Source: Pyrinomonadaceae bacterium (GTDB lineage: Bacteria; Acidobacteriota; Blastocatellia; Pyrinomonadales; Pyrinomonadaceae). From it: a stretch of DNA of 64,000 bases. Every line of letters begins with the position of its first letter. Position 1 is the stretch's first letter. The DNA lies in contig DASVTR010000020.1 in the NCBI GenBank assembly GCA_036387475.1, forward strand, positions 117,870 through 181,869, written 5' to 3'. The notes under the pieces are model-generated. The model saw only the letters and a program-made list of their open reading frames with translations. It did not search any database and was not told the DNA's origin. Positions 9,610-45,212 of this stretch are shown here, piece after piece. The position numbers were made by a program, and so were the translations under genes.

Positions 9610-9682
9610 GGAACGCCGCAACGATGAACGATGAATAGAAAGCAGCTTGCCTTTCATTCATCGTTCATCGTTCCGCGTTCAT
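9610..9682. repeat. heptamer-built hairpin (GATGAAC family)
   Basis: aacgatgaacgatgaat (9620-9636) pairs with attcatcgttcatcgtt (9656-9672). It starts 8 nt after the peptidase stop. Confidence 0.8.
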
Positions 9683-9725
9683 ACTTTGTCCGTATCTGGT
9701 TTTGTTTAGCAATCCAAACTGAAGG

Positions 9726-10490
9726 ATGAACTTCTTCGCATTCAAATCGGCGGCAGAGCGGTATGCCGTCGGGCGACTCTTTTTTCATACAATTGTCATC
9801 GCGCGCGTCAGGGAGTTTTTGTCACTGACCGAATTGCTGGCGCGTGCGCTCGACGTGGGCTGCGGCACTGGCCTCTCTTCGGTCGCGCTGAAAGAAATAG
9901 CGAGCCGGATTGTCGGCATAGACGCTGCGCCTTCGATGATCGCGCACGCCCCGACGGATGCGCGCATCAATTACAGTGTGGCCGTCGCCGAGCGCTTGCC
10001 CTTTTGCGAGCAGGCGTTCGATTTGATAACTCTCTCGCAGGTTTCACACTGGCTCGACCGCAAAGTATTCTTCGCCGAAGCGCGCAGGGTGCTGCGGCCC
10101 GGCAGATGGCTCATCGCCTATGACGCTTACTTTTCCGCGCAGACAATCGAGCACACCGATTTTCAAATGTGGCACGAGGCCATTTATCTCAAAAACTATC
10201 CAAGCCCGCCGCGCTCTCCCGTCGCGCTCGCGGCTGAGGACGTAGCGGGTACAGGCTTTCAACTGTGTGAAGAAGAGCGTCTGCAACACACGATTAGTTT
10301 CACTGTCGAACAGTTGGTGGAATATCTGTTGACGCAGAGCAACGTCATCGCGGCGGTCGAAGGCGGCACAAAAGAGATTGGCGAAGTTCGAGACTGGCTG
10401 ACGAAGAACGTCACGCCGTTCTTTGCCGGACATGACGCTGCGGGCTTCCTTTTCAATGTGCCAATCTGGTATCTACAATCCACAGTATAG
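9726..10490 (+). CDS. class I SAM-dependent methyltransferase
   Basis: Motif I LDVGCGTGLSS. Confidence 0.75.
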   Translation: MNFFAFKSAAERYAVGRLFFHTIVIARVREFLSLTELLARALDVGCGTGLSSVALKEIASRIVGIDAAPSMIAHAPTDARINYSVAVAERLPFCEQAFDLITLSQVSHWLDRKVFFAEARRVLRPGRWLIAYDAYFSAQTIEHTDFQMWHEAIYLKNYPSPPRSPVALAAEDVAGTGFQLCEEERLQHTISFTVEQLVEYLLTQSNVIAAVEGGTKEIGEVRDWLTKNVTPFFAGHDAAGFLFNVPIWYLQSTV

Positions 10491-10498
10491 AGACTAAG

Positions 10499-11284
10499 AT
10501 GGGGCGTGACAGCACATCTCTTCGGGTGATAACGATGAAAAAAACAGAAGTTAAAGAGAGTGACCGGCTACTAATGCGCGAGCGGCCCGATGGATTGCCC
10601 ATCGGACAGATGAACTGGGGAAAGCTCTTGTTTATGCACTGGCCGATAGCGGCTCAAGCTCTGCGCCCCTTAATCCCTAAGGGCTTGACGATTGATACTT
10701 TCGACGGCAAGGCGTGGATTGGAGTCGTGCCGTTTACGATGTGGGGCGTGCGCCCGACGTTTATGCCGCCCGTGCCTGGGTTAAGCGAGTTTCACGAACT
10801 GAATGTCCGCACATACGTTCACCTGGACGGCGTGCCGGGCGTTTGGTTTCACTCGCTCGACGCGGCGAGCCAGTTGGCAGTCTGGGGCGCTCGCACCTTT
10901 TTTCATCTCCCCTACTTTCATGCCGAGATGAGCCTCGAACAAGAGGACGACACTATCATCTACAATTCCGACCGCACGGAAGAAGACGCGCTCGCCGCCC
11001 AACTTCAAGCCACCTGGAAGATAGGCGAGCGGCTGCCGGAATCCGAACCCGGCTCGCTGGAATTTTTCCTCACCGAGCGCTATTGCCTTTACGCTGCCGA
11101 TGGAGAAAAGCTCTATCAGTTGCGCATCAATCACCCGCCCTGGCCGTTGCAGCAAGCAGAGCTTTCGTCCTATGAATCGACGATGATCGAATCACACGGC
11201 CTGCCAACTCCAAAGGGCGAACCGCTGCTGCACTACGCCGAAGAATTACACGTCGAAGCATGGCCATTGGAAAGGCAAGAATAA
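10499..11284 (+). CDS. DUF2071 (YqjF-like) family protein
   Basis: NWGKLLFMHWP...AWIGVVPFTMWGVRP pattern. An alternative start exists at 10535. Confidence 0.6.
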   Translation: MGRDSTSLRVITMKKTEVKESDRLLMRERPDGLPIGQMNWGKLLFMHWPIAAQALRPLIPKGLTIDTFDGKAWIGVVPFTMWGVRPTFMPPVPGLSEFHELNVRTYVHLDGVPGVWFHSLDAASQLAVWGARTFFHLPYFHAEMSLEQEDDTIIYNSDRTEEDALAAQLQATWKIGERLPESEPGSLEFFLTERYCLYAADGEKLYQLRINHPPWPLQQAELSSYESTMIESHGLPTPKGEPLLHYAEELHVEAWPLERQE

Positions 11285-11365
11285 GGCGAAAGGTAAAAGT
11301 GTGGGAAGCCATTTTATTTAAAGATGGCTTCCCTTCCTTTTGCCGCTTACCCTTTTACTTCCTCT

Positions 11366-12223
11366 TTACCTTTGGCCTTGTTTTGCAAGTGGGCCAAGCG
11401 GGCCGTCCGGGTTGATGACGTTGCGCAGCGCTGTGTAGGGGATGACGATGACGTGCTGGCCTTCGGCGTAGGAAGCGACCTGATAGGGGTCGAAGGTGAC
11501 GCTAAGGCCGCGTCGTGTGATGTTCCAGTTCTTGTAGTTTTCCGAATCCGGGCCAGCGCCGCGCTCAATCCATTCTGTGTCAGGGTCTGGGCCAAGCTTT
11601 TTCTTCAAGGCTGCTATCGTGTAAGCCGAGATGGCTTGCATGTAGTTTGAACGCGGCTTGAAGAGGTCTGACAATTTGAGGGTGCGGCCCGCGTTGAGGT
11701 CGTAGTTCAGGACTATCGTGTGATGATTCGGATGTGCAGCGCCCGCAAAGTAGGTGCTGATGCCGAATGAGACGCTGATTAAATCCGGGCCGCTGTAATC
11801 AACCGTGTAAGCCGCGTCGAATGAATTTTCCCGCACTTCCGCCGGAGTTTCCGGGTCGGGTTCAGGGAAATCTTTCTTGAAGGCGTTGACCTCTTCTGTA
11901 ATCAGGTCTTTGACGGCGCGATTAAACTGCAAGGCCTTCGCATCCTTCGCTGCGACAACCTGCGGATAGCTGGCCTTAATCGTGTACAGAAATCTCCTGT
12001 TTCTTTCGGCGATGCGGCGCGGCGCAAACCTGCGAGCACCCGTCATGCCCCGACGCTGCATGAACAATAAAGCAGGCGCGTGCGCGACGCTCACGTCTTG
12101 ACTCTGGCCTGCCTGCCGCATGCCTCTCGCCGAAGCATTGCCTGCGCTTGCCTGCGACAACAGACCGAACGAAAGCGCCAGCGCTAACGAAACCTTTAAG
12201 ACAACGACTTTTCTCATCTTCAT
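11366..12223 (-). CDS. secreted DUF3298/DUF4163-like protein
   Basis: Signal peptide MKMRKVVVLKVSLALALS, then ...GAAHPNHHTIVLNYDLNAGRTLKLSDLF. ATG 12221-12223 follows GAAGGG. Confidence 0.6.
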   Translation of the reverse strand: MKMRKVVVLKVSLALALSFGLLSQASAGNASARGMRQAGQSQDVSVAHAPALLFMQRRGMTGARRFAPRRIAERNRRFLYTIKASYPQVVAAKDAKALQFNRAVKDLITEEVNAFKKDFPEPDPETPAEVRENSFDAAYTVDYSGPDLISVSFGISTYFAGAAHPNHHTIVLNYDLNAGRTLKLSDLFKPRSNYMQAISAYTIAALKKKLGPDPDTEWIERGAGPDSENYKNWNITRRGLSVTFDPYQVASYAEGQHVIVIPYTALRNVINPDGPLGPLAKQGQR

Positions 12224-12313
12224 CCCTTCACCCCATATTCTCGTGCCCGAAGCACGCTGACTCAAAAGACGCGCCCCGTACTACGTTTTGCACTCGCCGT
12301 AAAGCAAGGATAA

Positions 12314-12388
12314 AAGAATTGATTCATTGATTGATTGGTTCATTGCTTCAATGACTAAATGAGTCAATGAATCAATGAATCAATTCTT
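12314..12388. repeat. heptamer-built hairpin (TGATTCA family)
   Basis: aagaattgattcattgatt (12314-12332) pairs perfectly with aatcaatgaatcaattctt (12370-12388). It overlaps the ATP-grasp stop codon. Confidence 0.8.
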
Positions 12389-13613
12389 ACGCCGGTCTTT
12401 CCGGCGGCGGGGCGACGGCTGTGAATTCTTCGGCGAAGCGCCGCGCGTATTGTTCCAGTAGTTCTTCGACGCGTTCGAGCTTGGCCGCGCGGACGACCAG
12501 CCCTGCGTGGTAACGTTTCCTGACGCGATAGACAATCTCCGGGTCTGTGTAGCTGCTGGTGTCAGGGTATTCCTGCCGCGCCAGCGAGAGCACTATGCCG
12601 CCGTATGCAAGCGCTGCTTGCGGAGCATGGTAAGGACGCGCGCGGTCTGCGGTCTCTATCCTGGCCCACTCGCGCCAGATGTTGATGCCGCTGGCTGCTT
12701 CCAGAGTCTCTGCGATGTAAGCGCCGCCGACGCGCGCCGCGATTTCGAGAAAGTAAAACTGGCCGTCCCTTTCGCTCTTGATAAACTCTGCGTGCGCCGC
12801 GCCGTCCTTCAGGCCCAGACTCTTAATCAGCTTGCGATTAATTTTCAGCAGGTTTCTACGGTCGGCGGAATTATAATTGACCGTGTGCGAGATAAAGACG
12901 CCGCCGCCGTGCGCGACATCCATCGGAGGCCGCCCGTAGCGATTGACGCCCGCGAAGACAACCTTGCCCCCGGCCACTCCTGAATCAACGTGAAAGACTT
13001 CGCCCGGCACAAAGCGTTCGAGCAGGTAATAAGACGATTTTTCGTTGAGCCGTTCGCGCGCATCCAGTTCGTCAATTGCCCGCCAGACCTGTTCGGAGTC
13101 GCGCATCTTTTTGATTCCCATTGCAGACACGTCCGAGCGCGGCTTGAGCACCCAAGGCGCAGGAGTGCGCTGCATGAAGTCGTGCAGGCGTTCGTAATTG
13201 AGGACGTGTACGAAATCTGGAACGAGAATGCCAGCCTCTTGTGCGCGAACGCGCATCGAAAGCTTATCGCGGAAGATGCGCGCCTGCGCGCTCGTCATCC
13301 CCGGCAAACAGAGATGCTCGCGGATTAGCCCGGCGGTGATGACATCGTATTCTTCGAGGGCGACGAGGCGATAGATTTTAACGGAGCGCGCTAGCTGGCT
13401 GACGACGTGTGTGAGGATTTCCGTCCCGGCGTCGTCCGGCACAGCCACTATGTCGTCCAAGCTCTCGCGCGGCCAATCCTCCTTCAACAGCTTCTCTTTC
13501 GTCACAAGGATGACGCGAAAGCCCAAAGCTTTGCACTCGCGCAAAAACTCGCCGCCCTTAAAATAGCTGGCGAGGCAGATGATTGTCTCCGCTCTGGGGG
13601 AAGATTCGCTCAT
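12387..13613 (-). CDS. ATP-grasp domain ligase (carboxylate-amine/L-amino-acid-ligase-like, with a pre-ATP-grasp N-domain)
   Basis: 408 aa: WVLKPRSDVSAMGIKK, YLLERFVPGEVFHVD, FLEIAARVGG. These are typical ATP-grasp nucleotide-binding elements. Confidence 0.8.
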   Translation of the reverse strand: MSESSPRAETIICLASYFKGGEFLRECKALGFRVILVTKEKLLKEDWPRESLDDIVAVPDDAGTEILTHVVSQLARSVKIYRLVALEEYDVITAGLIREHLCLPGMTSAQARIFRDKLSMRVRAQEAGILVPDFVHVLNYERLHDFMQRTPAPWVLKPRSDVSAMGIKKMRDSEQVWRAIDELDARERLNEKSSYYLLERFVPGEVFHVDSGVAGGKVVFAGVNRYGRPPMDVAHGGGVFISHTVNYNSADRRNLLKINRKLIKSLGLKDGAAHAEFIKSERDGQFYFLEIAARVGGAYIAETLEAASGINIWREWARIETADRARPYHAPQAALAYGGIVLSLARQEYPDTSSYTDPEIVYRVRKRYHAGLVVRAAKLERVEELLEQYARRFAEEFTAVAPPPERPA

Positions 13614-16122: not shown

Positions 16123-16625
16123 TGGAAAAAATACACAGGCGGCTGGACAATGTACATGGGCGGCTGCTGACATTAATCGAGCCGCTCGATAAGGAGAAGT
16201 TTGCGCTGAGGCCCGCGCCGAACATTTGGAGCGTAGCAGAGGTCGTGCATCATCTCTGCCTCGTCGAACAGCACATGATTCAGAGCATAGAGCAGGAGCT
16301 AACGCAACCGCCGAAGCGCCTGCCCCTGCTCAATCATTTGATTCCCTACTCTTTGCTCGTGGGCCGCCGCGTCCGCCGCGTTCGCGCGCCGAAGGCGGTC
16401 GAGCCGCTCAACCCGCCGCCCAAAGAAACTGTCATCGAAAACTACAACCGCGTTCGGGCGACAATCAAAGCGCTAAGCCGTGAACACGGTCGCAAGCGGC
16501 TCTCTCAAGTAGTGATGAAGCATCCGTTCCTCGGCGCTTTCAGCGGCGTCAAGGCCATCGCCTTCGTCGGCTATCACGAGCAGCGTCACTACAAACAGAT
16601 TCAAGAGATTATCTCTCAACTATAA
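16122..16625 (+). CDS. DinB family protein
   Basis: His triad pattern (HHLCLVEQH ... YHEQRHYKQI). TAATG overlap with the upstream gene. Confidence 0.7.
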   Translation: MEKIHRRLDNVHGRLLTLIEPLDKEKFALRPAPNIWSVAEVVHHLCLVEQHMIQSIEQELTQPPKRLPLLNHLIPYSLLVGRRVRRVRAPKAVEPLNPPPKETVIENYNRVRATIKALSREHGRKRLSQVVMKHPFLGAFSGVKAIAFVGYHEQRHYKQIQEIISQL

Positions 16626-16690
16626 CGATGAACGATGAATAAAAGACAAACTCTTCTTCATTCCGCGTTCATCGTTCCGCGTTCATCGTT
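16624..16690. repeat. heptamer-built hairpin (GATGAAC family) between convergent genes
   Basis: It has the same 17-mer aacgatgaacgatgaat as at 9620, opposed by (ttccgcg/ttcatcg) heptamers at 16661-16690. Confidence 0.75.
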
Positions 16691-31126: not shown

Positions 31127-31130
31127 AAAT

Positions 31131-31211
31131 GCGAAAGTGGCGGAATTGGCAGACGCGCTAGGTTTAGGCCCTAGTACCGAAAGGTGTGGGGGTTCGAGTC
31201 CCCCCTTTCGC
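31131..31211 (+). tRNA. tRNA-Leu (anticodon TAG), class II with a long variable arm
   Basis: GCGAAAG acceptor, U8, ctagg-ttTAGgc-cctag anticodon arm, acc-gaaa-ggt variable arm, GGGGG-ttcgagt-CCCCC T arm. Only 5 C are present where a 5-bp T stem plus a 7-bp acceptor need 6. No CCA is encoded. Confidence 0.8.
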
Positions 31212-31314
31212 ATCAAACGTTTTTCCGTGTCGCACTGTTCGCGCGTGTGGGTTTGATTCGAGAAGAGACGCTCGTTGCACGCTACGTTGATGCGCGGCAG
31301 GCTTTGAGTTTTTA

Positions 31315-31968: not shown

Positions 31969-31979
31969 AGGAAAAAGTT

Positions 31980-33419: not shown

Positions 33420-33539
33420 CTCCGAAGGTTTGCGGGCCGTCAGCTATCAGATTAGAGGCAGAAGCCGAGGGTTCACTCATCCAGTATTTTTGTCGAACAA
33501 CGCGCTTCGCCGTGGAGTAATGAAAGGGTTAAAAGTTCT

Positions 33540-34124
33540 ATGGCTTTAGTTCCAATGGTCGTCGAGCAAACGTCGCGTGGCGAACGCGCCTTCGACATTT
33601 ACTCGCGCCTTTTGAAAGACAACATCATCTTTTTAGGCACGCCGATTGACGATCAGATTGCCAATCTCATCGTCGCGCAACTGCTCTTTCTCGAAGCCGA
33701 AGACCCGGAGAAAGACATCAACATCTACATCAATAGCCCCGGCGGATCAATTACTGCCGGAATGGCTATCTACGATACGATGCAGTTTATCCGTCCCGAT
33801 GTGACGACGATCTGCGTCGGCCAGTGCGCTTCGATGGGCGCGCTCCTGTTGACGGCGGGAGCAAAGGGCAAACGCTTCGCGCTGCCTAATTCGCGCATCC
33901 TCATTCACCAGCCTTCGGGCGGCACGCAGGGTCAGGCCACGGACATTCGCATCCAGGCCGAAGAGATTATTCGTATGCGCGAGTTGACTTCGCATATTAT
34001 CGCCAAGCATACGGGCCAGTCTTTTGAAAATGTCGAGCGCGATGTCGAGCGCGACCGCATTATGTCCGCCATGCAGGCGAAAGAGTACGGCCTGATTGAT
34101 GAAGTGATCGCACACAGAGAGTAA
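33540..34124 (+). CDS. clpP: ATP-dependent Clp protease proteolytic subunit
   Basis: [18 protein letters not shown]..., catalytic [15 protein letters not shown]. Confidence 0.95.
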
Positions 34125-34128
34125 ACTC

Positions 34129-34251
34129 GATTTTGGATTTTAGATTTTGGATTTTGGATTAATTGCGCTGCGAACCCAGCCCTCTTCCAGAATCCAAGCT
34201 CAAGATTGAACGGGTCGCCAATCTAAAATCCAAAATCTAAAATCCAAAATC
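34129..34251. repeat. heptamer-built long hairpin (GATTTTG family) between clpP and clpX
   Basis: The 32-nt arm gattttggattttagattttggattttggatt (34129-34160) pairs with 34220-34251, with a single G-U. Confidence 0.85.
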
Positions 34252-34264
34252 CCCTGAGACTCTT

Positions 34265-35509
34265 ATGGTACGACGAACCGATGACACGTTGCGCTGTTCG
34301 TTCTGCGGCAAATCGCAGAATGAAGTGAAGAAGCTCATTGCCGGCCCCACCGTCTACATCTGCAATGAGTGTATAGACATCTGCAACGAAATCATTACGG
34401 ATGACCAGAACGCCGAATCTGTGGCGACACGACCGCCGCTGCCCAAGCCAAACGAGATCAAGAGCTTTCTGGACGAATACGTCATCGGACAGGAAGAGAC
34501 GAAGAAGCGCCTGGCCGTCGCCGTCTACCAGCATTACAAGCGCATCGAACTCACGCGCCGCCGTTCCGACGTTGAGATTCAAAAATCCAACATCCTCCTG
34601 ATTGGCCCAACGGGAACGGGCAAGACCCTTTTGGCCCAGACGCTCGCGCGAATGCTCTCCGTGCCTTTCACGATAGTTGACGCGACGACGCTGACCGAAG
34701 CGGGCTACGTCGGCGAAGATGTCGAGAACATTATCCTGAAGCTCTTACAGGCCGCCAACGGCGATGTCGAGCGCGCGCAGCAGGGCATCATCTACATTGA
34801 TGAAGTTGACAAGATTTGTCGCAAGGACGAGAACCCTTCGATTACGCGCGACGTGTCGGGCGAGGGCGTGCAACAGGCGCTTTTGAAAATCCTGGAAGGC
34901 ACGGTCGCCAACGTCCCGCCGCAGGGCGGACGCAAGCACCCGCATCAGGAATTCTTCCCCGTTGACACGACCAACATTCTCTTCATCTGCGGCGGCGCGT
35001 TCGTCGGTCTCGAAAAGGTCGTCGAAAAGCGGATGCGCAATAAGTCTATGGGCTTTCACGCCGAAGTGAAATCGGGCATGCACCGCCACGCCGAAGCGCT
35101 CGCCGCCGTGCAGCCGGAAGACCTCGTGCGCTACGGCCTGATTCCTGAGTTCGTCGGACGCCTGCCCGTGCTCGGCGTGCTGCATGAGTTGGACGAAGGC
35201 GCGCTGATTAAGATTCTGACCGAGCCGAAGAACGCGCTCGTCAAGCAGTATCAAAAACGGTTTGACTTCGACAACGTGAAACTCAAATTCACGGACGACG
35301 CGCTCAAGTCTGTCGCCCGCCAGGCCGTCGAGCGCAAGGTGGGCGCGCGCGGTCTGATGATGATTCTCGAAGACCTCCTGCTCGACGCCATGTACACGCT
35401 GCCCTCGCAGAAACGCATCAAGGAATTCGTTATCACCTCCGAGATGGTCGAACGACGCCGCGCCATTCCCGGCGAAGGCTTGACGGGCGTAGACGGCGCA
35501 GCCGCCTGA
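34265..35509 (+). CDS. clpX: ATP-dependent Clp protease ATP-binding subunit
   Basis: Zinc ribbon CSFCGK...CNECIDIC and Walker A GPTGTGKT. Confidence 0.95.
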
Positions 35510-35642
35510 ACCAGCGCCCACAGGCGAGCCTTGAAGGAGACTGACACCATTCACCGAGCGAGCGCTTTCCAAGCGACACTGCTGCAAGCGCGCACTCGCC
35601 AATTACCATCTACCAACTAACCGAAAGGAATCTACAGCTTCA

Positions 35643-36029
35643 ATGAAGAATGTTTCTAGGAATCCCCTGCGTAAGTTGGCGGCCCTCGTCGCCATTTGTA
35701 CGATGTCAATGCTGCTCATCCCCTCGGCTTTCGCTCAAGGGAAGCAAGACTTCACGCTGCACAATATGACGGGCGTCGCCATCACAGAGCTTTATATTTC
35801 CCCGCACAGCACAGACCAGTGGGAGGAAGATATTCTTGGGCAGGACACGCTGCCCAACGGCGAAAGTCTCGACATCACCTTCGACCGCAAGGAGAAGGCG
35901 GCCAAGTGGGACTTGAAAATCGTTGACAAAGACGGCGACAGCATTGAGTGGGAAAATCTTAACCTGCTTGAAATCTCCGAAGTCACGCTGCATTTCGAAA
36001 ATGGGCGTGCGTGGGCCGAAGTTAAATAG
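35643..36029 (+). CDS. secreted protein, unknown ~97-aa domain (paralog 1)
   Basis: Signal peptide ...LLIPSAFAQG. The domain GKQDFTLHN...WEEDILGQDTLPNG...EISEVTLHFENG is shared with the next gene. Confidence 0.7.
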   Translation: MKNVSRNPLRKLAALVAICTMSMLLIPSAFAQGKQDFTLHNMTGVAITELYISPHSTDQWEEDILGQDTLPNGESLDITFDRKEKAAKWDLKIVDKDGDSIEWENLNLLEISEVTLHFENGRAWAEVK

Positions 36030-36123
36030 CGCTGGACTGCTAGTTCACAGACAGCACAAACGGGAAAGAGCGCGGGACTTCGCTCGTACACCACTAATCC
36101 GCTAAAGGAAGATGAAAAGATAA

Positions 36124-36636
36124 ATGAAAAAAACAACACTGATTGGCGGCCTTGCCGTCGCGTTACTCGTCGCCGCAGGCTGCTCCTCAACGGGGACAGC
36201 TAACAAGACGACAAATACTTCCACAACGACGACCACCACGAACACGGCCAACCGGACTACTCCTCCGGCATCGAACACGTCCAACACTACGACGTCTAAC
36301 ACCACGACCTCTAACACGACTTCCAGCAGCGCTCCGGCGGAGGGTGGTAAACAGGACTTCGCTTTGACCAACGCGACGGGCGTAGAGATTGACGAGCTAC
36401 ATGTCTCCCCGCACGACGTAGACGACTGGCAGGAAGACATTCTCGGACGCGACACGCTGCCTAATGGTCAGACCGTCAACATCACCTTCAACCCCAAGGA
36501 AAAGGCCGCGCTGTGGGACATCAAGATCACAGACAAGGAAGGCACGAGCATCCAGTGGGAGAGTCTTAACCTGATGGAAATTTCCGAAGTCACGCTGCAT
36601 TTCGAGAACGGCAAGCCGACGGCGACCGTCAAGTAG
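36124..36636 (+). CDS. lipoprotein with a Thr/Asn/Ser-rich linker and the same ~97-aa domain (paralog 2)
   Basis: Lipobox LVAAGCSS. The domain is roughly two-thirds identical to the 35643-36029 product (hand alignment). Confidence 0.7.
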   Translation: MKKTTLIGGLAVALLVAAGCSSTGTANKTTNTSTTTTTTNTANRTTPPASNTSNTTTSNTTTSNTTSSSAPAEGGKQDFALTNATGVEIDELHVSPHDVDDWQEDILGRDTLPNGQTVNITFNPKEKAALWDIKITDKEGTSIQWESLNLMEISEVTLHFENGKPTATVK

Positions 36637-36675
36637 CTGCGGGGCGGCGTCTTTAGCCCTTTAAGCCAGCATTAA

Positions 36676-36720
36676 AGAGCGGCGAGAGTTTCACACTCTC
36701 GCCGCTCTCTTGCTTTCCCT
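36676..36720 (+). terminator. rho-independent terminator
   Basis: agagcggcgagagt-ttcac-actctcgccgctct: 14-bp stem followed by cttgcttt. Confidence 0.65.
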
Positions 36721-36885
36721 TCCTTCAAGGGCCTTCGGCCCGGCATTTACTTTAGCCCAGTAGCGTGCGGGCGGGAAATGTTTTACAATTAAGCCTATCA
36801 GGAAACGAGGGCGAGCTGCCGCAGAAGCCGCTCGCCCTTACTTCTCTAGCTGTTAAGCGCTGGGGCGAAAGAGTTAAATCGAGTT

Positions 36886-39324
36886 ATGGAAGAATATTCA
36901 GATCGCATTCCGTCCGACATCGTGCGTTATCCGATGGTGCCGATTCGTGACGTGGTTATTTTCCCCTTCACTAAAGTTGCTTTTAAGATCGGGCGCGCCG
37001 GAAGCGTGCGCGCTCTCGAAGAGGCGCTCGCGGGCGACCGCACCATCTTTCTCGCCACGCAGCACGATGCCAGCATAGACGAGCCGACGCCCGAACAGAT
37101 TTACGGCGTCGGAACTCTGGGACGTATTCTCCAATCGCAAAAGCAGGAAAACGGCCAGATCAAGGTCGTCGTCGAAGGCCGCGAGCGGGCGACCACCGTG
37201 CGCGTCGAGAATAACAACGGCGCGTTTACAGCGCTCGTGCGCCGCGCTCCAGTCGTGGCTGAGGAGAGCGCGCGGCTTGAGCCTTTCCTCCAAAGAATCA
37301 ACACTCTCGTCGAACAACACTTGCGGCTCGCGCCCGATGCTCAAACCGATGCGCTGCAAACCGCGCTCCGTAATCAAGACCCGTCGCATCTGGCCGACGC
37401 GCTCGCTTCGCAACTGCGTATCTCTGTCGAAGATAAGCAGGGACTTCTGGAGATTTTTTCGACGCAGGCACGCCTTCAGCGCTTGATTGAACTGCTCGAA
37501 ACAGAACTGGAAAAACGCCAACTCGACCGCACCATCCAAACGCGCGTCAAGCGACAGATGGAGAAGGCGCAGAAGGAGTATTACCTCAACGAGCAGATCA
37601 AGGCGATTCACAAAGAGCTTGGCCGCAAGGATGAAAAGGCCGAACTCGAAGAATTGAAGAAGAAGATTGAAGAGGCTGGGATGTCGGAAGAGGCTAAGGA
37701 AAAGGCCATGCAGGAATTGCACCGCCTGGAAGCCATGCCCCCGATGTCCGCCGAAGGGACGGTCTCGCGCACCTACATTGACTGGCTGCTGAGCGTGCCC
37801 TGGAAACAAAAATCAAAAGAGATTAAAGACCTGACGCGCGCCGAAGAGGTCTTGAACGAAGACCACTACGGGCTTGAGAAAATCAAGGAGCGTATTCTCG
37901 AATACCTGGCCGTGCGCCAGTTAGTCAAAAATCCGAAGGGTTCAATTCTCTGCTTCGTCGGCCCGCCCGGAGTCGGAAAGACATCCTTGGGGAAATCCAT
38001 CGCACGCGCGACGAATAGAAAGTTTGTCCGCCTCTCTCTGGGCGGCGTGCGTGACGAGGCTGAGATTCGCGGCCATCGTCGCACCTACATCGGCGCACTT
38101 CCCGGCCAGATTATTCAGATGATGAAGAAGGCCGGAACAGTTAATCCCTTAATCCTGCTCGACGAAGTTGATAAGCTCGGCGCGGATTTCAGGGGCGATC
38201 CCAGTTCTGCCCTTTTGGAAGTGCTCGACCCCGAACAGAACAACACATTTCAGGATCACTACCTGGATGTCGAATACGATCTTTCGCGTGCCTTCTTTAT
38301 CGCGACGGCGAACGTGCTGCACACGATTCCGCCGCCGCTTCAAGACCGCCTTGAGATCATACGCCTTTCGGGCTACACGGAGCGCGAGAAGCTGGAAATC
38401 GCCAAGCGCCATCTAGTGCCGAAGCAGGCCGAAGGCAACGGACTCAAGGCCGAGCAGGTAGAATTTACGGACGACGGCCTTTTGGAAATCATTCGCCACT
38501 ACACGCGCGAGGCTGGCGTGCGCAACATGGAGCGCGAGATCGGCTCTTGCATGAGGAAGGTGGCCCGCCGGTTTGTGACTGAAAATGCGGGCGAAGATTT
38601 CAAGGATGTTGTGACCGAAGAACGTGTGCGCGAGATGCTTGGGCCAATCCGTTTCCGTCAACAGGGCGTGGCGGCGGAAAGCGAGATTGGTCTGGCTACG
38701 GGACTGGCTTGGACGGAAGTCGGCGGCGAAGTCCTGCAAATCGAGGCGACGCTCGTCAAGGGTCGCGGCGGCGTGACGTTGACGGGCAAGCTCGGCGAAG
38801 TAATGCAGGAATCGGCGCAGGCCGCTTTGACCTGTATTCGCGCCCGTGCGGAGCGGCTGGGAATGAGTCTGGACTTCATTCGTAAGCGCGACATGCACAT
38901 ACACATTCCCGAAGGCGCGATTCCGAAGGATGGCCCATCGGCGGGAATTACGCTGGCGACCGCCATGTCCTCGGCCTTGATGCGCGTCCCCGTTCGCAAG
39001 GACGTGGCGATGACGGGCGAGATAACGCTGCGCGGAAAGGTTCTACCCATCGGCGGCGTCAAAGAGAAACTGCTCGCGGCGCATCGCTTTGGCATCAGTA
39101 CGCTGATCCTGCCGAAGGACAACGAAAAGGATTTAATGGAAATCCCGGAGGAAGTGCGCAGTCTGCTGGATGTCCACTTTGTCGAGACGATTGACGAAGT
39201 ATTGGCGCTTGCGCTGGAAAACGCTTGCCCGACGGATGCCGAACCGACCGACGAGACTAAGACGACGCCGCCGCTCTGGACGACAGAGCCGCCGTCGCAG
39301 GGAATACAAACCATCGCCGAATAA
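36886..39324 (+). CDS. lon: ATP-dependent Lon protease
   Basis: LON N-domain, Walker [10 protein letters not shown], catalytic KDGPSAGIT. Confidence 0.95.
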
Positions 39325-39538
39325 CGCTTGTTCGCCGCAGGGGCGAGGGGGCACATCCAAGCGGCATGGCCGGACTTGCGTGCTCCCGCCCTGCGGATGT
39401 ATCTTGAAACCTCGCCTCGCTTTTGTTCGTCTATACAGTCGGACTCAGCAATCATCAATCTTAACCCAGAACGACGAGCACGTTCGCCGGTTAGCTTTCC
39501 GGCTGCGACCAGCGCGTTCAAATCGAATGGAGATTCCA

Positions 39539-39979
39539 ATGAGCGAAAAACATGAATCCGCCAAGCTGATTCTCAAGCTCTATGACCTGCGGCGCGAAGA
39601 AGTGATGAGGAAAGCGCGCTCCTGGTTCATCGCTGAATTTAATCCGCAGAACTTGCAGGATTTCGTCAACGTGACGGCGAGCGACAAGAGCGCCTATTAC
39701 CGTATGGTCACGACCTACTGGGACATGGCCTGCTCGCTGGTCGTCAATGGCGCAATAGACGAGGAGATGTTCTCGGACGCCAACGCAGAGCACGTCGCCG
39801 TCTATTCCAAGATCGAGCCTTTCATCACAGAGATTCGTGCCGCCTACTCGCAAACCTACATGAAACATCTCGAAAAGGTCGTGATGGGTATGCCGAACGC
39901 TAAAGAGGTGGTGGCGACGACGCGCGAGCGGCTCAAGCTGCTCACGACCAACCGTGCCGACGCTGCGAACACTCAGTAA
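39539..39979 (+). CDS. hypothetical protein (146 aa)
   Basis: ATG 39539 after GGAG. The upstream part of the listed ORF overlaps lon and is rejected. Confidence 0.55.
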   Translation: MSEKHESAKLILKLYDLRREEVMRKARSWFIAEFNPQNLQDFVNVTASDKSAYYRMVTTYWDMACSLVVNGAIDEEMFSDANAEHVAVYSKIEPFITEIRAAYSQTYMKHLEKVVMGMPNAKEVVATTRERLKLLTTNRADAANTQ

Positions 39980-39984
39980 AGAAG

Positions 39985-40114
39985 TGATTCGGAAAAGCAG
40001 AATTCAGAATCCAGCAGTCAGGAGTCAGAAGGGAAAGAAAATCAGAAGAATGGGGCTTCCGCAGATTATTCCGGCTTCTGGATTCTGACTCCTGACTGCT
40101 GCTTTTCCGAATCA
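39985..40114. repeat. heptamer-built long hairpin (CAGTCAG / CAGAATC units) ending 2 nt before the engB ATG
   Basis: tgattcggaaaagcag (39985-40000) pairs with ctgcttttccgaatca (40099-40114). Inner cagtcaggagtcagaa pairs with ttctgactcctgactg. Alternative registers exist. Confidence 0.85.
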
Positions 40115-40116
40115 TT

Positions 40117-40704
40117 ATGAAAATTACGAGCGCCGAGTTTATCAAGAGTGCCTTTACGGAGGAGCACTGGCCGACGAACCCTTTGCCGGAGATAGCGTTT
40201 CTGGGGCGCTCAAACGTCGGCAAATCGAGCCTGATAAATTCGCTGTTGGGCGTCAAGGGGCTGGCACGGACTTCTTCGACTCCGGGGCGAACGCAATCGC
40301 TCAACTTTTTTCTGATTAATAATCGTTTCCGTTTCGTTGACCTTCCCGGCTATGGTTACGCGCGCGTTCCCCGAAATGTAAAAGCCGAGTGGGGTGAAAT
40401 GGCGACGAACTTCCTTGCCAAGCGGCTAGGGCTTGTGCTATCAATTCAGATCGTAGATTCGCGCCACGAACCCACAACCCAGGATTTGCAACTCAAGGAA
40501 TGGCTCCAGCACCATGCGAAGCCGCGCGTTGTAGTTGCCACGAAATCCGATAAGCTCTCTAACAATGAGTTGCGTAAAAACATGGGGCGCGTGCGCCGGG
40601 TGATGAACACAGAAAAGGTCATCGCATATTCGGCCACGACCGGGCAGGGACGCGAAGAGGTTTGGCGCAGTATCGAAACAGCAATCAAAGGTTTTTCCCT
40701 TTAG
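40117..40704 (+). CDS. engB: ribosome biogenesis GTP-binding protein YihA/YsxC
   Basis: GRSNVGKSSLINSL (G1), DLPGYGYA (G3), TKSDK (G4). Confidence 0.9.
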   Translation: MKITSAEFIKSAFTEEHWPTNPLPEIAFLGRSNVGKSSLINSLLGVKGLARTSSTPGRTQSLNFFLINNRFRFVDLPGYGYARVPRNVKAEWGEMATNFLAKRLGLVLSIQIVDSRHEPTTQDLQLKEWLQHHAKPRVVVATKSDKLSNNELRKNMGRVRRVMNTEKVIAYSATTGQGREEVWRSIETAIKGFSL

Positions 40705-41225
40705 TAGCCCCTTGGTTTTCTCTAATTTTCGGCGCGAGGCCACGCGCGGGATTTCCCAAGCATCAGAGTGGAGGTCAACGACTAAAGACCCCGGCAGACA
40801 GCTTAACGGATTTGACAGACGCGACCTGAAAGCGGAGCAGCATCGTCGCCTTGCGTAACTACGATTGATGCAAAAGCGCCTCACGCGCGCTTGCCTGACT
40901 CCCGCGTTCACACAGAAAACCCCTGCTCTAAGATTCATCAACGAAAGTTTTCATCACATTGACAACCACGCGGCCATAGATGCCGTACAGAATTTTGAAG
41001 GTATAAAGAGCGTCCCCGTAAATTTATCGGGGCGCATTGAGAAGAACTGAAATGTCACAACGCACACCACGCACACGCACTACTTCAAGCAACAGTTCCG
41101 GCTCGGACGGAAACGGCGAGAACGGAGCGGCGACCACAACCGCCACCGCCGAAGCTCCAGCACCGGAAAAAGTCACCACCAAAGAATCTGCGACGGCCAG
41201 AGAAACGGGAGGCAAGGGCGATGAA

Positions 41226-42479
41226 ATGCTAAATATCGCCGACCTCAAGGAAATGTCCATCTCAAAGCTGACGCAGATCGCCAAGGGCATGGACGTTCCC
41301 GGCGCAACAGGGATGCGCAAGCAGGAATTGATCTTCAAAGTCCTTGCCGCGCAAACCGAAAAAAGCGGGCTTATCTTCTCCGAGGGCGTCCTGGAAACCT
41401 TGCCCGACGGCTTTGGTTTCCTGCGCGCTCCTGAGTACAACTATCTGCCCGGCCCGGACGACATTTACGTCAGCCCGTCGCAGATTCGCAAATTCGATTT
41501 ACGCACGGGCGATACCGTATCCGGGCAGATTCGTCCGCCCAAAGAGGGCGAGCGCTATTTCGCTCTGATTAAGGTCGAGGCCATTAACTTTGAGGCTCCC
41601 GGCGAAACGCGCGACAAGGTTTTCTTCGACAATCTGACGCCGCTCTACCCTGACGAGCAACTGCGTATGGAGACGGCGAAGGAGAATCTTTCGGCCCGCG
41701 TCATAGACCTCGTCACGCCCATCGGTAAAGGCCAGCGCGGCCTTATCGTCGCGCCGCCCCGCACAGGCAAGACGATGCTCTTGCAAACCATCGCCAACTC
41801 CGTCACGGAGAATCACCCGGAAGTTACATTAATCGTTCTCTTGATTGACGAGCGCCCGGAAGAGGTCACGGACATGCAGCGCTCTGTCAACGGCGAAGTC
41901 ATCTCTTCGACGTTTGACGAGCCGCCGACGCGCCACGTGCAGGTCGCAGACATGGTGATCGAGAAGGCCAAGCGCCTCGTCGAGCACAAGCGCGATGTCG
42001 TCATCCTGCTCGACTCGATTACACGTCTCGCCCGCGCGCACAACGCGGTCGTGCCGCCTTCGGGCAAGATTCTCTCCGGCGGTATTGATTCCAATGCCCT
42101 CCAACGTCCGAAGCGTTTCTTCGGCGCGGCGCGCAATATCGAAGAGGGCGGAAGCTTGACGATTATCGCCACAGCCCTGATCGACACAGGCTCACGCATG
42201 GACGACGTGATCTTCGAAGAGTTCAAGGGCACTGGCAATTGCGAAATCCATCTTGACCGGCGCTTGAGCGATAAGCGCCTGTTCCCGGCCATCGACCTTC
42301 AGCGTTCAGGCACACGCAAAGAGGAACTCCTGCTCAGCAAGGAAGACCTCAATCGTATCTGGGTGATGCGCCGCGTGCTCAATCCGCTCTCGCCCGTAGA
42401 GCAGATGGAAGTCGTCCTTGAGCGCTTGGAGAAATCCAAATCCAACGCCGAATTCCTGGCCTCGATGCAAAGCTCATAA
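41226..42479 (+). CDS. rho: transcription termination factor Rho
   Basis: [20 protein letters not shown] (Rho_N), RNA-binding [15 protein letters not shown], Walker [13 protein letters not shown] lies 7 nt upstream. In-frame upstream starts at 41052/41037 would add a low-complexity extension. Confidence 0.9.
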
Positions 42480-42481
42480 AG

Positions 42482-42555
42482 TAGTGGTCAGTGGTTGGTG
42501 GTCAGTGTTCAGTAAAGGCAAGTTGCTTTGACTGACCACCGACCACTGACCACTA
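42482..42555. repeat. heptamer-built hairpin (TGGTCAG family) after rho
   Basis: tagtggtcagtggttggtggtcagt (42482-42506) pairs with actgaccaccgaccactgaccacta (42531-42555): 25 bp with one G-U. Confidence 0.85.
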
Positions 42556-42659
42556 ATCACTCGTCTTGACAAAGAAGACTTCGCTTCGCATAGTATCCGA
42601 ACGCTCTTGCAGTTTAATCACTAGCGACGGACACCCGACGGGGTGCAGTGTAAAGAGTT

Positions 42660-44084
42660 TTGCGTATTGCAATTCTTTCGTCTGAAGCTGTGCCCTTCGC
42701 CAAGACCGGCGGACTGGCGGACGTGGCGGGCGCGTTGCCGAAGGCACTGGTGGCGGCGGGCGCTGACGTACTGCTAGCGCTCCCGCTCTTTGAGCAGATT
42801 GACCGGCGGCTGCTGAAAAAGCAGGCCATTGATAATCTGTCGGTCGAGTGGCGCGGGCGCGATTATCGTGCGTCTGTCTGGTATTCGGATGCGCCGGGAG
42901 CGCCGTCGTTTTTGATTGACGCGCCGGAGTATTTTGGGCGTCCTTCGATCTACGGCTTTCGCGACGACCATGAGCGCTTCGCCTTTTTCTGTCGCGCGGC
43001 ACTGGCTTTGATGAAGCGTTTGGGCCAGCCGCCCGATGTCGTTCACGTCAACGATTGGCCCGGCGGCTTTGCAGCCGTCGAACTGCGAGCGCGCCGCTCT
43101 TACGATTCATATTACGCGCAAACGCGGACGCTCTTTTCCATACACAATCTTGCTTATCAGGGCGCGTTCGACGGGGGCGAACTTTACAAACTCGGATTCG
43201 ACTGGCCGGAGCAGCGCGAGATGTTCATGGCAAGCGGCGCGGCCTCGGCTTTAAAAGCCGGATTGCTTGCCTCAGACGCGCTCTCGACCGTCAGCCAGCG
43301 CTACGCTCTTGAGATTCAGACACCGGAGCACGGTCATGGCCTTGAATGGATTCTGCGTGCGCGGCGAGACCGGCTCGTAGGGATTACAAACGGCGTCGAC
43401 TATGAAGTCTGGAATCCAGCGACGGACGAGCATCTTCCGGCGCACTACAGCGCGGATAACTTGGAAGGCAAACGCTATTGCAAGCTCGCGCTGCTGAGCC
43501 GTTTGGGGCTGCCTGCGGATTTAGACCGCCCCGTAATTGCGACCATCTCGCGCCTGACGCCGCAGAAAGGCTTCGACTTGATACGCGAAGCGGCGGGTGC
43601 AATCCTTGAAACGGGCGCATATTTTGTCGCGCTCGGCTCAGGCGCGCAGGAGTACGAAGACTTTCTGCAACTGATGCGCGACCACTCGCCCCGGCAGGTC
43701 GGCATCTACAAAGGCTTCAACGAGCCGCTGGCGCACCAGATAGAAGCAGGCGCGGACATCTTTCTCATGCCGTCGCAATATGAGCCGTGCGGACTGAACC
43801 AGATGTACTCGACGCGCTACGGCACTGTTCCGGTGGTGCGTGCGACAGGCGGCCTTGACGACACGGTGCAGGATTTCGACCGTCTGGCCGGAACGGGCAA
43901 CGGCTTTAAGTTTGGGCCGTACACAGCCCAGGCTATGCTTGAAAAAATTCACGAAGCGCTTTACTGTTATGCTGAACCTGAGACATGGACGCGGATTCAG
44001 CAGAACGGCATGCGCGTGGACAATTCATGGCAAGCCGCCGCCTTGAAGTATCTGAATCTTTACCGGGCCGTGACCAGAATGTAA
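42660..44084 (+). CDS. glgA: glycogen (starch) synthase
   Basis: MRIAILSSEAVPFAKTGGLADV. GT5/GT1 C-terminal motifs. TTG start. Confidence 0.9.
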   Translation: MRIAILSSEAVPFAKTGGLADVAGALPKALVAAGADVLLALPLFEQIDRRLLKKQAIDNLSVEWRGRDYRASVWYSDAPGAPSFLIDAPEYFGRPSIYGFRDDHERFAFFCRAALALMKRLGQPPDVVHVNDWPGGFAAVELRARRSYDSYYAQTRTLFSIHNLAYQGAFDGGELYKLGFDWPEQREMFMASGAASALKAGLLASDALSTVSQRYALEIQTPEHGHGLEWILRARRDRLVGITNGVDYEVWNPATDEHLPAHYSADNLEGKRYCKLALLSRLGLPADLDRPVIATISRLTPQKGFDLIREAAGAILETGAYFVALGSGAQEYEDFLQLMRDHSPRQVGIYKGFNEPLAHQIEAGADIFLMPSQYEPCGLNQMYSTRYGTVPVVRATGGLDDTVQDFDRLAGTGNGFKFGPYTAQAMLEKIHEALYCYAEPETWTRIQQNGMRVDNSWQAAALKYLNLYRAVTRM

Positions 44085-44220
44085 GAGCGCCGTTAGATGC
44101 TGGCTAACGCTTGATGCTGGCATCTGGCAACAACATCTATTTTTAAAGGACGCGCCGAGAGTTAAGCTCAGGCTCGCTTGCTGGCCGTCACAAGGTGAAA
44201 GAAATAAGGAGAGTACAATA

Positions 44221-44562
44221 ATGAGTGAAAACGTGATTGAAGTAAGCGACAGCAGTTTTGAGAAGGACGTTCTACAGTCGGACACGCCCGTGCTCGTAGA
44301 CTTCTGGGCGGCATGGTGCGCGCCCTGCCGTATGCTCGCGCCGACGGTCGAGGCTGTGGCCGAGAAATACTCCGGCACTGCGCGCGTCGTCAAGCTCAAC
44401 GTCGACGAGAACCCTTCTATCTCGCAGCGCTACGGCATCAAGGGCATCCCGACGCTGATTCTCTTCAAAGGCGGGAAGGAAGAAGAGCGCGTCGTCGGCG
44501 CGACGAGCAAGGAAGCGATCTCGCGTATGCTCGATAAACACGTCAGTGCCGCCACCGCTTAA
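44221..44562 (+). CDS. trxA: thioredoxin
   Basis: DFWAAWCAPCR active site (WCAPC variant), GIKGIPTLILFKGG. Confidence 0.9.
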   Translation: MSENVIEVSDSSFEKDVLQSDTPVLVDFWAAWCAPCRMLAPTVEAVAEKYSGTARVVKLNVDENPSISQRYGIKGIPTLILFKGGKEEERVVGATSKEAISRMLDKHVSAATA

Positions 44563-44584
44563 AAAATTCCGAACGATACCGGAT

Positions 44585-44624
44585 GGCGCGGTCGGACATT
44601 GTACTTCCGCGCCTTCGTCTGTTT
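44585..44624 (+). terminator. probable rho-independent terminator
   Basis: ggcgcgg (44585-44591) pairs with ccgcgcc (44607-44613), followed by ttcgtctgttt. Confidence 0.5.
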
Positions 44625-44727
44625 AATGAAAAGCAAGAGAAGTTCCGTTGGGCTACGTAGTCATCTCCTGTAGCTGTTAGCGCCTGCTGCTCTCAAGGCA
44701 CGCGCGGGCGAGAGCGGAAGCTACCCT

Positions 44728-45135
44728 ATGAAACCAACGCAGAGTCGCGCCGTCACGCGCCGCAAGCGCACGTTTGAAGAAAGGCTCGCTGAGCGTCTGC
44801 GCTCGCGCACGGTCGAAGACGCACGGCTGCGCGCACGGCAGGCGCAGGGTAAGCTGCGTCGCTTCGTCAGCGCCAACTTTCGCAAGCAGGAAGCCATCGA
44901 GGCGCTCGCCCTGCGGCGCGGCGACTGCAATCGCTGCGGCGCGTGCTGCGAGCTTCTCTTCAAGTGTCCATTCCTTAAGAAGCAGGATGATGGGACTTCC
45001 CTGTGCGGCATCTACGAAGATCGCCCCAACCAGTGCCGCTTCTTTCCCATCACACAGCGCGACATCGAAGAAGTGCGCGGAACCTGTAGCTTCTACTTTA
45101 TCGAGAAGCCGGTCAATTTAGAGAAAGCAAGCTAA
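44728..45135 (+). CDS. YkgJ-family Cys-cluster (putative Zn/Fe-chelating) protein
   Basis: CNRCGACCELLFKCPFL ... CGIYEDRPNQCRFFP. Confidence 0.7.
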   Translation: MKPTQSRAVTRRKRTFEERLAERLRSRTVEDARLRARQAQGKLRRFVSANFRKQEAIEALALRRGDCNRCGACCELLFKCPFLKKQDDGTSLCGIYEDRPNQCRFFPITQRDIEEVRGTCSFYFIEKPVNLEKAS

Positions 45136-45136
45136 A

Positions 45137-45212
45137 CAGTTTTCAGTTTTCGGTTTTCAGTTTTAAGCCGCTGGCTGCTGACTGAAAACTGAAAACCGAA
45201 AACTGAAAACTG
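45137..45212. repeat. heptamer-built perfect hairpin (CAGTTTT family) filling the gap up to purA
   Basis: The 28-nt arm cagttttcagttttcggttttcagtttt (45137-45164) is perfectly complementary to 45185-45212. The purA ATG is at 45217. Confidence 0.9.

Follow-up and report, generated by a model that had tools for sequence, protein, structure and literature searches.

Stop-codon-anchored hairpins with tandem-heptamer arms in a Pyrinomonadaceae genome, and their relation to known bacterial repeats

Introduction

Heptamer repeats between bacterial genes have been noted for decades without an accepted origin or function. Among the closest described systems are the short tandemly repeated repetitive (STRR) sequences of cyanobacteria, which are intergenic tandem heptamers of several unit families per genome whose inverted arrays can form hairpins between co-transcribed genes (PMC2670836), and the lineage-restricted intergenic heptamer arrays near gene boundaries of Xanthomonas (GGGAATC) and Beggiatoaceae (TAACTGA), whose length varies between relatives and which occasionally include inverted pairs (PMC4692102; PMC4679880). 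The repetitive extragenic palindromic (REP) sequences of Proteobacteria, together with bacterial interspersed mosaic elements (BIMEs) and the REP doublets forming hairpins (REPINs), are dispersed intergenic palindromes of 60–130 nt, often placed after genes or between convergent genes; they form multi-copy sequence families, and roles in mRNA 3'-end protection and termination have been proposed for them. The elements described here resemble each of these systems in those respects. They are hairpins with arms of short tandem 7-nt units, found between the genes of a 64-kb stretch (‘the window’) of the genome of a Pyrinomonadaceae bacterium (phylum Acidobacteriota; GenBank assembly GCA_036387475.1, contig DASVTR010000020.1, positions 117,870–181,869). 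The heptamer arrays described elsewhere are mostly direct repeats (PMC4679880; PMC4692102), unlike the paired arrays here.

In this lineage the heptamer repeat takes a cleaner form: the arrays nearly always form hairpins, sit at stop codons, and keep a strict polarity, and in several genomes they are found at matching junctions of a conserved housekeeping operon. The elements offer a testable geometry (stop codon, stem, start codon) and a comparative system in an abundant, little-studied soil phylum. Such hairpins can also break short-read assemblies (one contig, L002, ends inside one) and mislead terminator prediction.

Hairpins of the window

Heptamer-armed hairpins are real and occur far beyond chance expectation. 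A hairpin-first detector (ungapped stem score of at least 14) found 13 loci in the window, where 100 dinucleotide-preserving shuffles gave 0.12 on average, and in six of the 13 the arms had a lag-7 identity of at least 0.7 (0.72–0.92), against 0.01 expected from the shuffles; a strict detector for tandem and then inverted repeats missed most sites. All places listed in the original prediction, a reading of the sequence alone that had named nine or more heptamer-armed sites, were recovered independently by a general repeat finder and by Tandem Repeats Finder (TRF) as inverted repeats with tandem-unit arms. The period-7 arrays reported by TRF (at 9620, 9657, 16624, 16661, 24396, 24441, 34129, 34220, 39998, 42483, 42531, 45137, and 45181) are all intergenic.

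RNA folding is robust at eight of the nine sites (-20 to -63 kcal/mol, z scores of -4.4 to -11.4). Both strands fold about equally well, the stems being near-perfect Watson–Crick palindromes. That the periodic arms allow several slipped pairing registers was borne out by refolding: helices displaced by 7 or 14 nt are almost as stable as the best register (for a 7-nt shift, -39.5 versus -42.0 kcal/mol at site S9 and -47.3 versus -48.6 kcal/mol at site S8). The hairpin at 39985 reads the same in a 1.45-Mb contig from JGI, one from ENA, and one from Logan, which come from independent assemblies, and the JGI contig is identical throughout the hairpin at 45137; the hairpins are thus no assembly artefact. 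In an Rfam search of the window, only two tRNAs reached the gathering score, and the hairpins gave sub-threshold matches to microRNA-precursor models, which are generic long hairpins.

The sites are listed below, with minimum free energies (MFE) in kcal/mol.

S1, 9611–9680: hairpin of the GATGAAC/GCGGAAC family, 8 nt past the stop codon (9600–9602) of an S9-family peptidase gene, the next gene starting at 9726; the exact 18-mer GTTCATCGTTCCGCGTTC lies within it at 9663; fold at 9606, MFE -40.2, z -8.1.
S2, 12314–12388: hairpin of 8-nt units ATTGATTC/ATTGGTTC (TRF period 8, 4.6 copies), overlapping the stop codon (12387–12389) of a minus-strand ATP-grasp gene and with a U-rich stretch behind it on that strand; fold at 12310, minus strand, MFE -29.2, z -6.5.
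S3, 16624–16690: hairpin of the GATGAAC/GCGGAAC family between convergent genes, overlapping the stop codon (16623–16625) of a DinB-family gene and ending 5 nt from that of an amidohydrolase gene (16696); arms unequal (2.3 versus 4 units); fold at 16620, MFE -20.1, z -4.4.
S4 outer, 24363–24497: arms of GATGAAC/GCGGAAC type, in the divergent spacer between a Mur ligase gene (left) and an S8-family peptidase gene (right); fold at 24362, MFE -56.5, z -9.8.
S4 inner, 24398–24463: CAGTTTT/CGGTTTT hairpin within the loop of S4 outer, its unit family shared with S9.
S5, 27850–27930: weak, degenerate composite whose outer arms are built of GGATGAA and whose inner part consists of ATTGGTTC octamers, behind a canonical terminator (27719–27765, plus T-run) and ahead of a SIS-domain gene; fold at 27848, MFE -23.5, z -2.9, which is marginal (2 of 200 shuffles as good).
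S6, 34129–34251: GATTTTG hairpin whose 32-nt arms include a single G.U pair, filling the spacer from the clpP stop codon (34122–34124; +4 nt) to the clpX ATG at 34265 (13 nt left); fold at 34124, MFE -50.3, z -8.2.
S7, 39983–40116: compound hairpin in which a unique outer stem of 17 bp encloses a CAGTCAG/CAGAATC stem, running from 3 nt past the stop codon of a DUF4760 gene to the last base ahead of the engB ATG (40117); fold at 39980, MFE -63.2, z -7.4.
S8, 42482–42561: TGGTCAG hairpin, 2 nt past the rho stop codon; fold at 42479, MFE -52.2, z -9.5.
S9, 45137–45212: CAGTTTT hairpin with a perfect 28-bp stem, 1 nt past the stop codon of a CxxCxxCC gene and ending 4 nt ahead of the purA ATG (45217); fold at 45134, MFE -45.3, z -11.4.

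The stem starts at -2 to +8 nt relative to a stop codon at seven of the nine sites (S1 +8, S2 and S3 overlapping, S6 +4, S7 +3, S8 +2, S9 +1). A start within a few nucleotides of stop codons had been described for the whole class; S4, in a divergent spacer, and S5, behind a canonical terminator, depart from it. Likewise, the convergent and co-directional placements that had been described are both seen, with the divergent placement of S4 in addition. The canonical hairpins of the window (3057, 27719, and 36676) start 35–42 nt past their stop codons. By direct reading, and as had been noted, most sites lack a U tract (S1 and S4 through S9, seven of nine), S2 (minus strand) and S3 being followed by U-rich stretches; a terminator consensus scan of 27000–46900 listed the canonical hairpin at 36676–36708 and none of S6 through S9. 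The starts of clpX, engB, and purA are consistent with the gene calls of the source assemblies and with Pfam domain coverage.

Several sites differ from their first description. The unit of S2 had been given as TGATTCA and is the octamer ATTGATTC: TRF assigns period 8, lag-7 identity is 0.25, and the registers slip by 8. The inner part of S5, a site that had been listed under GATGAAC, belongs to that same octamer family, and S5 is weak. The places at 24365 and 24397, reported separately, form one composite, S4. Finally, the statement that mismatches are confined to G-U pairs is true of S6 and S8; it does not extend to the larger set described below, where co-directional stems hold 12 G.U, 12 A.C, and 35 other mismatches, the last largely unit swaps.

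Two further candidate properties were rejected. Only in the GATGAAC family does the 5' arm have a stop codon in every frame, and loops hold no conserved motif beyond a loose AAAG...CTTT(C) tendency and one match between apices. This match is between S1 (9637–9654) and S8 (42513–42530, in reverse orientation), which are identical at 15 of 18 positions (AAAGCARCTTGCCTTT) despite their different arm heptamers.

Regularities in a larger set

The window was pooled with 200 further loci, the relatives being sampled as pieces of about 20 kb. Genes outside the window were called with our own 3-periodic Markov model trained on the window, which replaced longest-open-reading-frame calling after the latter had mis-called rho and DUF4760 and inflated the divergent and inside-gene classes. 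The pool contains 190 strong hairpins: 96 of period 7, 85 non-periodic, and nine of another period. By context, the 96 period-7 hairpins comprise 50 co-directional, 11 convergent, and six divergent cases, five apparently inside genes, and 24 at contig ends; per kilobase of spacer, divergent spacers are about three-fold poorer in them.

Co-directional hairpins are closely tied to the upstream gene, 42 of 50 starting at most 20 nt past its stop codon (median 3 nt). At the other side, 33 of 50 end at most 30 nt from the next start codon, and in 30 of 50 (60%) both ends are close. Nine co-directional hairpins lie within 9 nt of the stop codon despite 88–1820 nt of spacer beyond them, so the tie is to the stop codon and not merely a result of short spacers. 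Genes directly behind a hairpin less often have motifs resembling the Shine-Dalgarno (SD) sequence (10/42 versus 155/376, p = 0.03).

The hairpins are also polar. Of 95 hairpins, 91 have more G than C in the 5' arm, and the figure is 41 of 45 when the family through which the metagenome contigs were ascertained (see below) is left aside. Ordinary non-periodic hairpins have the same polarity (17 versus 0) in L014–L082, Acidobacteriota loci without periodic hairpins; this common polarity places both kinds of hairpin in one constraint class.

Among tandem repeats between genes, period 7 dominates in each of the three groups of loci, including the Acidobacteriota loci without such hairpins. An inverted partner is present for 27 of 34 arrays in the window and its close relatives (about 80%), for 165 of 248 on the metagenome contigs, and for 13 of 47 in other Acidobacteriota. 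Nesting of one hairpin in another is common (S4, S5, S7, and in L005 after rho, L010, L113, and L135).

Relatives and metagenomes

Eighty Acidobacteriota loci, labelled with L numbers, came from a one-genome-per-species scan for Rho, and the synteny from tig to rho is widely conserved among them. Strong periodic-arm hairpins occur in L004, L005, L006, and L009 (Pyrinomonadaceae and allies), and also in L036 and L048, with period 7 in 12 of the 13 periodic hairpins of the Acidobacteriota loci. About 60 loci, belonging to Bryobacterales, Terriglobia, and Vicinamibacterales, have none.

The position after rho is occupied as follows.

Window: TGGTCAG hairpin (S8).
L004: GCTTTGT hairpin.
L005: GTGACAG hairpin nested in a CCGTGAC stem.
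L006: CCGTGAR hairpin.
L003: non-periodic hairpin of 27 bp.
L009, L012, and L013 (lower G+C): short AATCGTGAATAG hairpin plus T-run.

The hairpin at the 3' end of rho is thus kept in relatives with different units, so that the architecture outlives the sequence. The DUF4760–engB spacer holds four unrelated hairpins in the window, L006, L009, and L010, reaching from 1–5 nt past the stop codon to 1–11 nt before the ATG; in L003, L004, L005, and L008 this spacer is short and without such hairpins. The clpP–clpX hairpin (S6) is absent from the same spacer in L004, L007, L012, L013, and L026. On these sequence comparisons, hairpins are gained and lost quickly, while place and geometry recur.

Two further observations come from loci outside the window. 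L002 (665–752) is a strain variant, from another sample, of window positions 34125–34212, with the same ClpP protein; it differs by a T-to-C substitution in the third 5'-arm unit and by several loop changes, and the break mentioned above falls in its clpP–clpX hairpin. A second dispersed palindrome family, non-periodic and with arms of about 35 nt (TGTCAGAACCGCCTGCGGTAGCGGGCGGTTGAA) is found in L100 (323–424 and 7544–7657), L189 (973–1066), and L010 (8696–8862); the L010 copy spans DUF4760–engB from stop to start and has a TAATGAT-type heptamer hairpin in its loop.

A metagenome set was ascertained through one 18-mer, GTTCATCGTTCCGCGTTC, which occurs three times in the window, was not matched in the viral contigs searched, and is present on at least 120 contigs from metagenomes, largely of soil, whose G+C content is 0.39–0.70 (nearly all 0.49–0.70 among the matches listed). 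The contigs' loci scarcely overlap each other. Among the matches listed, strong hairpins with the 5' arm AACGATGAACGCGGAACGATGAAC account for 75 of 145; the arms of this family are mosaics of a small alphabet (GAACGAT about 60%, GAACGCG about 25%); unit number is unequal between the arms of 39 of 62 members; and neither loops nor unit numbers are conserved between copies, the loops being unrelated. No target-site duplication was visible in the flanks of the 62 members, which were inspected by eye and not exhaustively. Other recurring period-7 units on the same contigs are AGTGATG, GGATGAG, CGTRAAT, TRAATGG, CAGGTGA, and others. By period, the strong hairpins there comprise 76 of period 7, four of period 8, one of period 6, one of period 4, and 48 non-periodic.

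The families GAACGAT/GAACGCG, CAGTTTT, and ATTGRTTC are re-used at many sites and in many genomes. The original prediction had considered the elements REP-like and genome-specific: they are indeed dispersed intergenic palindromes but are not genome-specific, since equivalents exist in metagenome-assembled genomes of other Pyrinomonadaceae and Acidobacteriota as well as on the contigs just described. Its further proposal, that selection acts on structure rather than sequence, holds only by half: it agrees with the rho 3' hairpin, which is kept while its unit changes, and not with the re-use of a small unit alphabet and the strict polarity.

Other features of the window

The window is ordinary chromosome, with the gene order tig-clpP-clpX-lon-DUF4760-engB-rho-glgA-trx-purA and assorted metabolic genes; no transposase, REP-associated tyrosine transposase (RAYT), or integrase was found among the 40 window proteins scanned against Pfam. 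A strong sigma-70-like match lies upstream of glgA at 42566–42594 (TTGACA, 17 nt, CATAGT, with TAGTAT 2 nt on), so that S8 and a promoter match are packed into the 180 nt between rho and glgA. A second promoter-like sequence, at chance level in the scan (34215–34243; TCGCCA, 17 nt, TAAAAT), lies inside the 3' arm of S6, where the A+T-rich heptamers are able to mimic a -10 box. Adjoining S4, upstream of the S8-family peptidase gene, is a 23-nt direct repeat of 2.3 copies (24524–24577; TTTCAACCTGACCGAACGCGCTCG), and the 3' part of this gene carries tandem repeats of 18, 36, and 33 nt (26514–26630) with a weak Pfam hexapeptide-repeat match. The main heptamer family's motif, GATGAAGG/CCTTCATCC, also occurs at 59486–59561, in a hairpin plus T-run with the look of a canonical terminator. 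The minus strand encodes, at 54947–58081, a large Ser/Thr protein kinase whose C-terminal part has ankyrin repeats.

Origin and function

Our preferred reading, held tentatively, is that the elements are slippage-built palindromes of a REP- or STRR-like kind, which would be transcribed as stem-loops that protect the upstream 3' end and would be read through rather than act as efficient terminators. Their source would be a phylum-wide bias towards 7-nt slippage, in line with a general excess of heptamers that has been reported in many bacteria (cited in PMC4679880 and PMC4692102). Unequal arms and unit mosaics point to gain and loss by whole units, which would proceed independently in each arm, and new arrays would tend to arise at the apex of a hairpin already present. 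The arms pair almost perfectly and show no G.U intermediates, which suggests either that one arm is copied from the other at the DNA level or that the elements are of recent origin.

As to function, the median stem start of about 3 nt past the stop codon suggests that the element would be transcribed as the last part of the upstream cistron. The very stable RNA stem-loop would mark and protect the 3' end of the upstream message as a barrier to 3' exonucleases, and might also be a substrate for a double-strand RNase or a processing site. In operons with selective RNA processing and stabilisation, mRNA stability is set by stem-loops between the cistrons (PMC4423207), and cyanobacterial 7-bp-repeat hairpins between hupS and hupL have been proposed to stabilise transcripts or to couple translation (PMC2670836). 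Within operons RNA polymerase would read through the hairpin, as it must where no promoter can fit behind the element (30 of the 50 co-directional cases). The stem base would have to be opened by the terminating ribosome; whether the stem folds, whether polymerase pauses or terminates, and whether the next start codon is accessible would then hinge on translation of the upstream gene. In E. coli, a terminator a few base pairs past a stop codon is repressed by the ribosome (PMC4824070).

Several observations weigh against this preferred reading. In-situ slippage does not account for the re-use of identical units across sites and genomes, which requires either a copying mechanism or strong sequence constraint. 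L004 lacks the clpP–clpX hairpin though its ClpP and ClpX are 95% identical to those of the window, and since close relatives thus differ in hairpin presence, any function must be dispensable. Six of the 72 classifiable hairpins lie in divergent spacers, and on one metagenome contig (L087, 500–740) more than 30 of the same units (GTTCATC/GTTCCGC/GTTCCTC) form a long, STRR-like direct array that lacks an inverted partner. There is no sense-strand excess of G.U over A.C mismatches (12 of each) as a sign of selection at the RNA level; with both strands folding alike, the constraint could act on DNA, or the elements could be too young to show it. The start codons called by our model outside the window are, moreover, approximate.

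In a selfish explanation, the hairpins would be non-autonomous mobile DNA of the REPIN or miniature inverted-repeat transposable element (MITE) kind, without host function, copied by an enzyme encoded elsewhere that recognises the heptad hairpins and prefers positions near stop codons or the loops of existing hairpins. Identical unit families at several sites per genome and on at least 120 unrelated metagenome contigs, insertions nested inside other hairpins, presence and absence differing between close relatives, and a size and stem quality like those of REPINs (PMC3116915) all agree with it. We nevertheless consider it unlikely: loops and unit numbers vary between copies, unlike those of a transposed unit; no target-site duplication is apparent in the printed flanks; the 40 window proteins scanned contain no transposase, RAYT, or integrase, nor do the viral contigs searched contain the 18-mer; and many unit families per genome would call for many enzymes or a very loose specificity.

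Slippage may, on the other hand, need no function at all. Ordinary 3' hairpins could be inflated by 7-nt replication slippage, tolerated outside coding sequence, and kept complementary by template switching within the palindrome. The dominance of period 7 even in Acidobacteriota loci lacking such hairpins, its agreement with the general heptamer excess noted above, the unequal arms, the near-perfect Watson–Crick stems without G.U intermediates, and the short post-rho AATCGTGAATAG hairpin of L009, L012, and L013, which resembles an unexpanded form of the arrays in L154 and L103, would all fit. A neutral by-product is nonetheless decidedly unlikely, as it leaves unaccounted for the sharing of units by unrelated sites and genomes, the tight stop-codon tie despite long available spacer, and the pairing of about 80% of arrays in this lineage versus 13 of 47 in other Acidobacteriota.

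We grade no higher the view that the hairpins are genuine factor-independent terminators without a U tract, like the long-stemmed ones proposed for Actinobacteria, in which the hybrid of a pyrimidine-rich 3' arm would replace the U tract. S8 stands where relatives have a canonical terminator after rho and has a good promoter-like site behind it, S3 separates two convergent genes, ordinary hairpins have the same polarity, and long stems lacking U-rich tails are reported at predicted transcript 3' ends of Actinobacteria (PMC13613805). Under efficient termination, however, the genes behind spacer-filling hairpins (clpX, engB, and purA) would be unexpressed; the stems lie 1–8 nt past the stop codon, where E. 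coli ribosomes repress termination (PMC4824070); and loops of 13–59 nt far exceed those of known intrinsic terminators. U-tract-independent termination is therefore unlikely as the main role, because the downstream gene has to be transcribed through such hairpins. The weak RNA:DNA hybrid given by a pyrimidine-rich 3' arm is a possible reason for the polarity.

A bolder proposal, which we regard as improbable, is that the hairpin is a ribosome-bridging device for translational coupling, the stem base bringing the stop codon and the next start codon close together, each 0–14 nt from it. Melted by the terminating ribosome, the stem base would expose the pyrimidine-rich 3' arm and a start codon usually without an SD sequence, the ribosome would re-initiate across the helix in the manner of shunting on plant pararetrovirus leaders, and the periodic arms would re-zip in shifted registers as it passed. 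The rarity of SD-like motifs behind hairpins is a weak argument for such coupling, since engB seemingly (by eye) has none in relatives lacking the hairpin as well. If true, bridging would be an unrecognised form of translational coupling in bacteria with low SD usage and might account for heptamer repeats beside start codons in cyanobacteria and Beggiatoaceae.

Still less probable are binding-site arrays for a protein recognising 7-nt repeats, as DNA (in the manner of ribbon-helix-helix proteins) or as single-stranded RNA (in the manner of ring-shaped regulators or cold-shock proteins), with binding competing with hairpin formation. A strict 7-nt period, discrete unit alphabets conserved across genomes, and strict polarity would be expected of them, and cold-shock protein binding has been discussed for other heptamer repeats (PMC4679880); yet more than 20 unrelated units in a few genomes would demand many proteins or almost no specificity, and no candidate gene is linked to the sites. 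Integron attC sites, clustered regularly interspaced short palindromic repeats (CRISPR), and iterons were rejected, there being no integrase, spacer array, or replicon context and the units misfitting attC core sites.

Comparison with known systems

Compared with cyanobacterial STRR sequences, the Nostoc unit TTGTCAG (PMC2408588, Table 3) is similar to the TGGTCAG of S8. The differences are that the host here belongs to Acidobacteriota, that about 80% of arrays are paired and short (2–5 units), and that they stand flush with stop codons in a strict G-rich-5'-arm polarity. STRR units of cyanobacteria include CCCCAGT, TTGGTCA, and CAACAGT, to the second of which TGGTCAG is merely similar. The elements thus share the heptamer array with STRR sequences, and neither the taxon nor the units.

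REP sequences have a GTAG or CGTC head at one end (PMC3733652); here only S8 begins with GTAG, and S1, S3, S6, S7, and S9 do not. A REP family has one conserved imperfect palindrome in many copies per genome; in the copies compared here the 18-mer recurs, while loop and unit number vary. Arms are periodic, loop and arm length are variable, and there are many families per genome. We know of no RAYT gene associated with heptamer-armed hairpins. The elements do not behave as MITEs either, with loops unrelated between copies and no flanking duplication visible by eye in 62 members.

The repeats of Xanthomonas and Beggiatoaceae have one dominant unit and are mostly direct, TAACTGA lying mostly just upstream of start codons, whereas here there are many units, mostly inverted and tied to stop codons.

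Intrinsic terminators likewise place a hairpin past the stop codon; relatives of the window have a canonical one at the same place, and the G/C polarity is that of ordinary hairpins of the phylum. A G+C-rich stem with a 3–8-nt loop and a U tract directly after it is nonetheless not what is found: seven of nine sites lack the U tract, loops measure 13–59 nt and stems 25–32 bp, and the next start is often 0–14 nt away. S6, S7, and S9 (13, 0, and 4 nt to the next ATG) do not end a transcription unit by position, as S8 may.

The stem-loops of selective RNA processing and stabilisation operons come directly after a cistron, are read through, and set upstream stability (PMC4423207; PMC8219983). They are neither built of repeats nor dispersed as families; we think that the present elements may work like them. 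A full-text search of the literature yielded no description of such hairpins in Acidobacteriota. Set against all these systems, what appears to be new is the predominance of hairpin pairing, the anchoring at stop codons, the filling of whole spacers between stop and start codon, the strictness of the polarity, and the sharing of unit families by many soil genomes.

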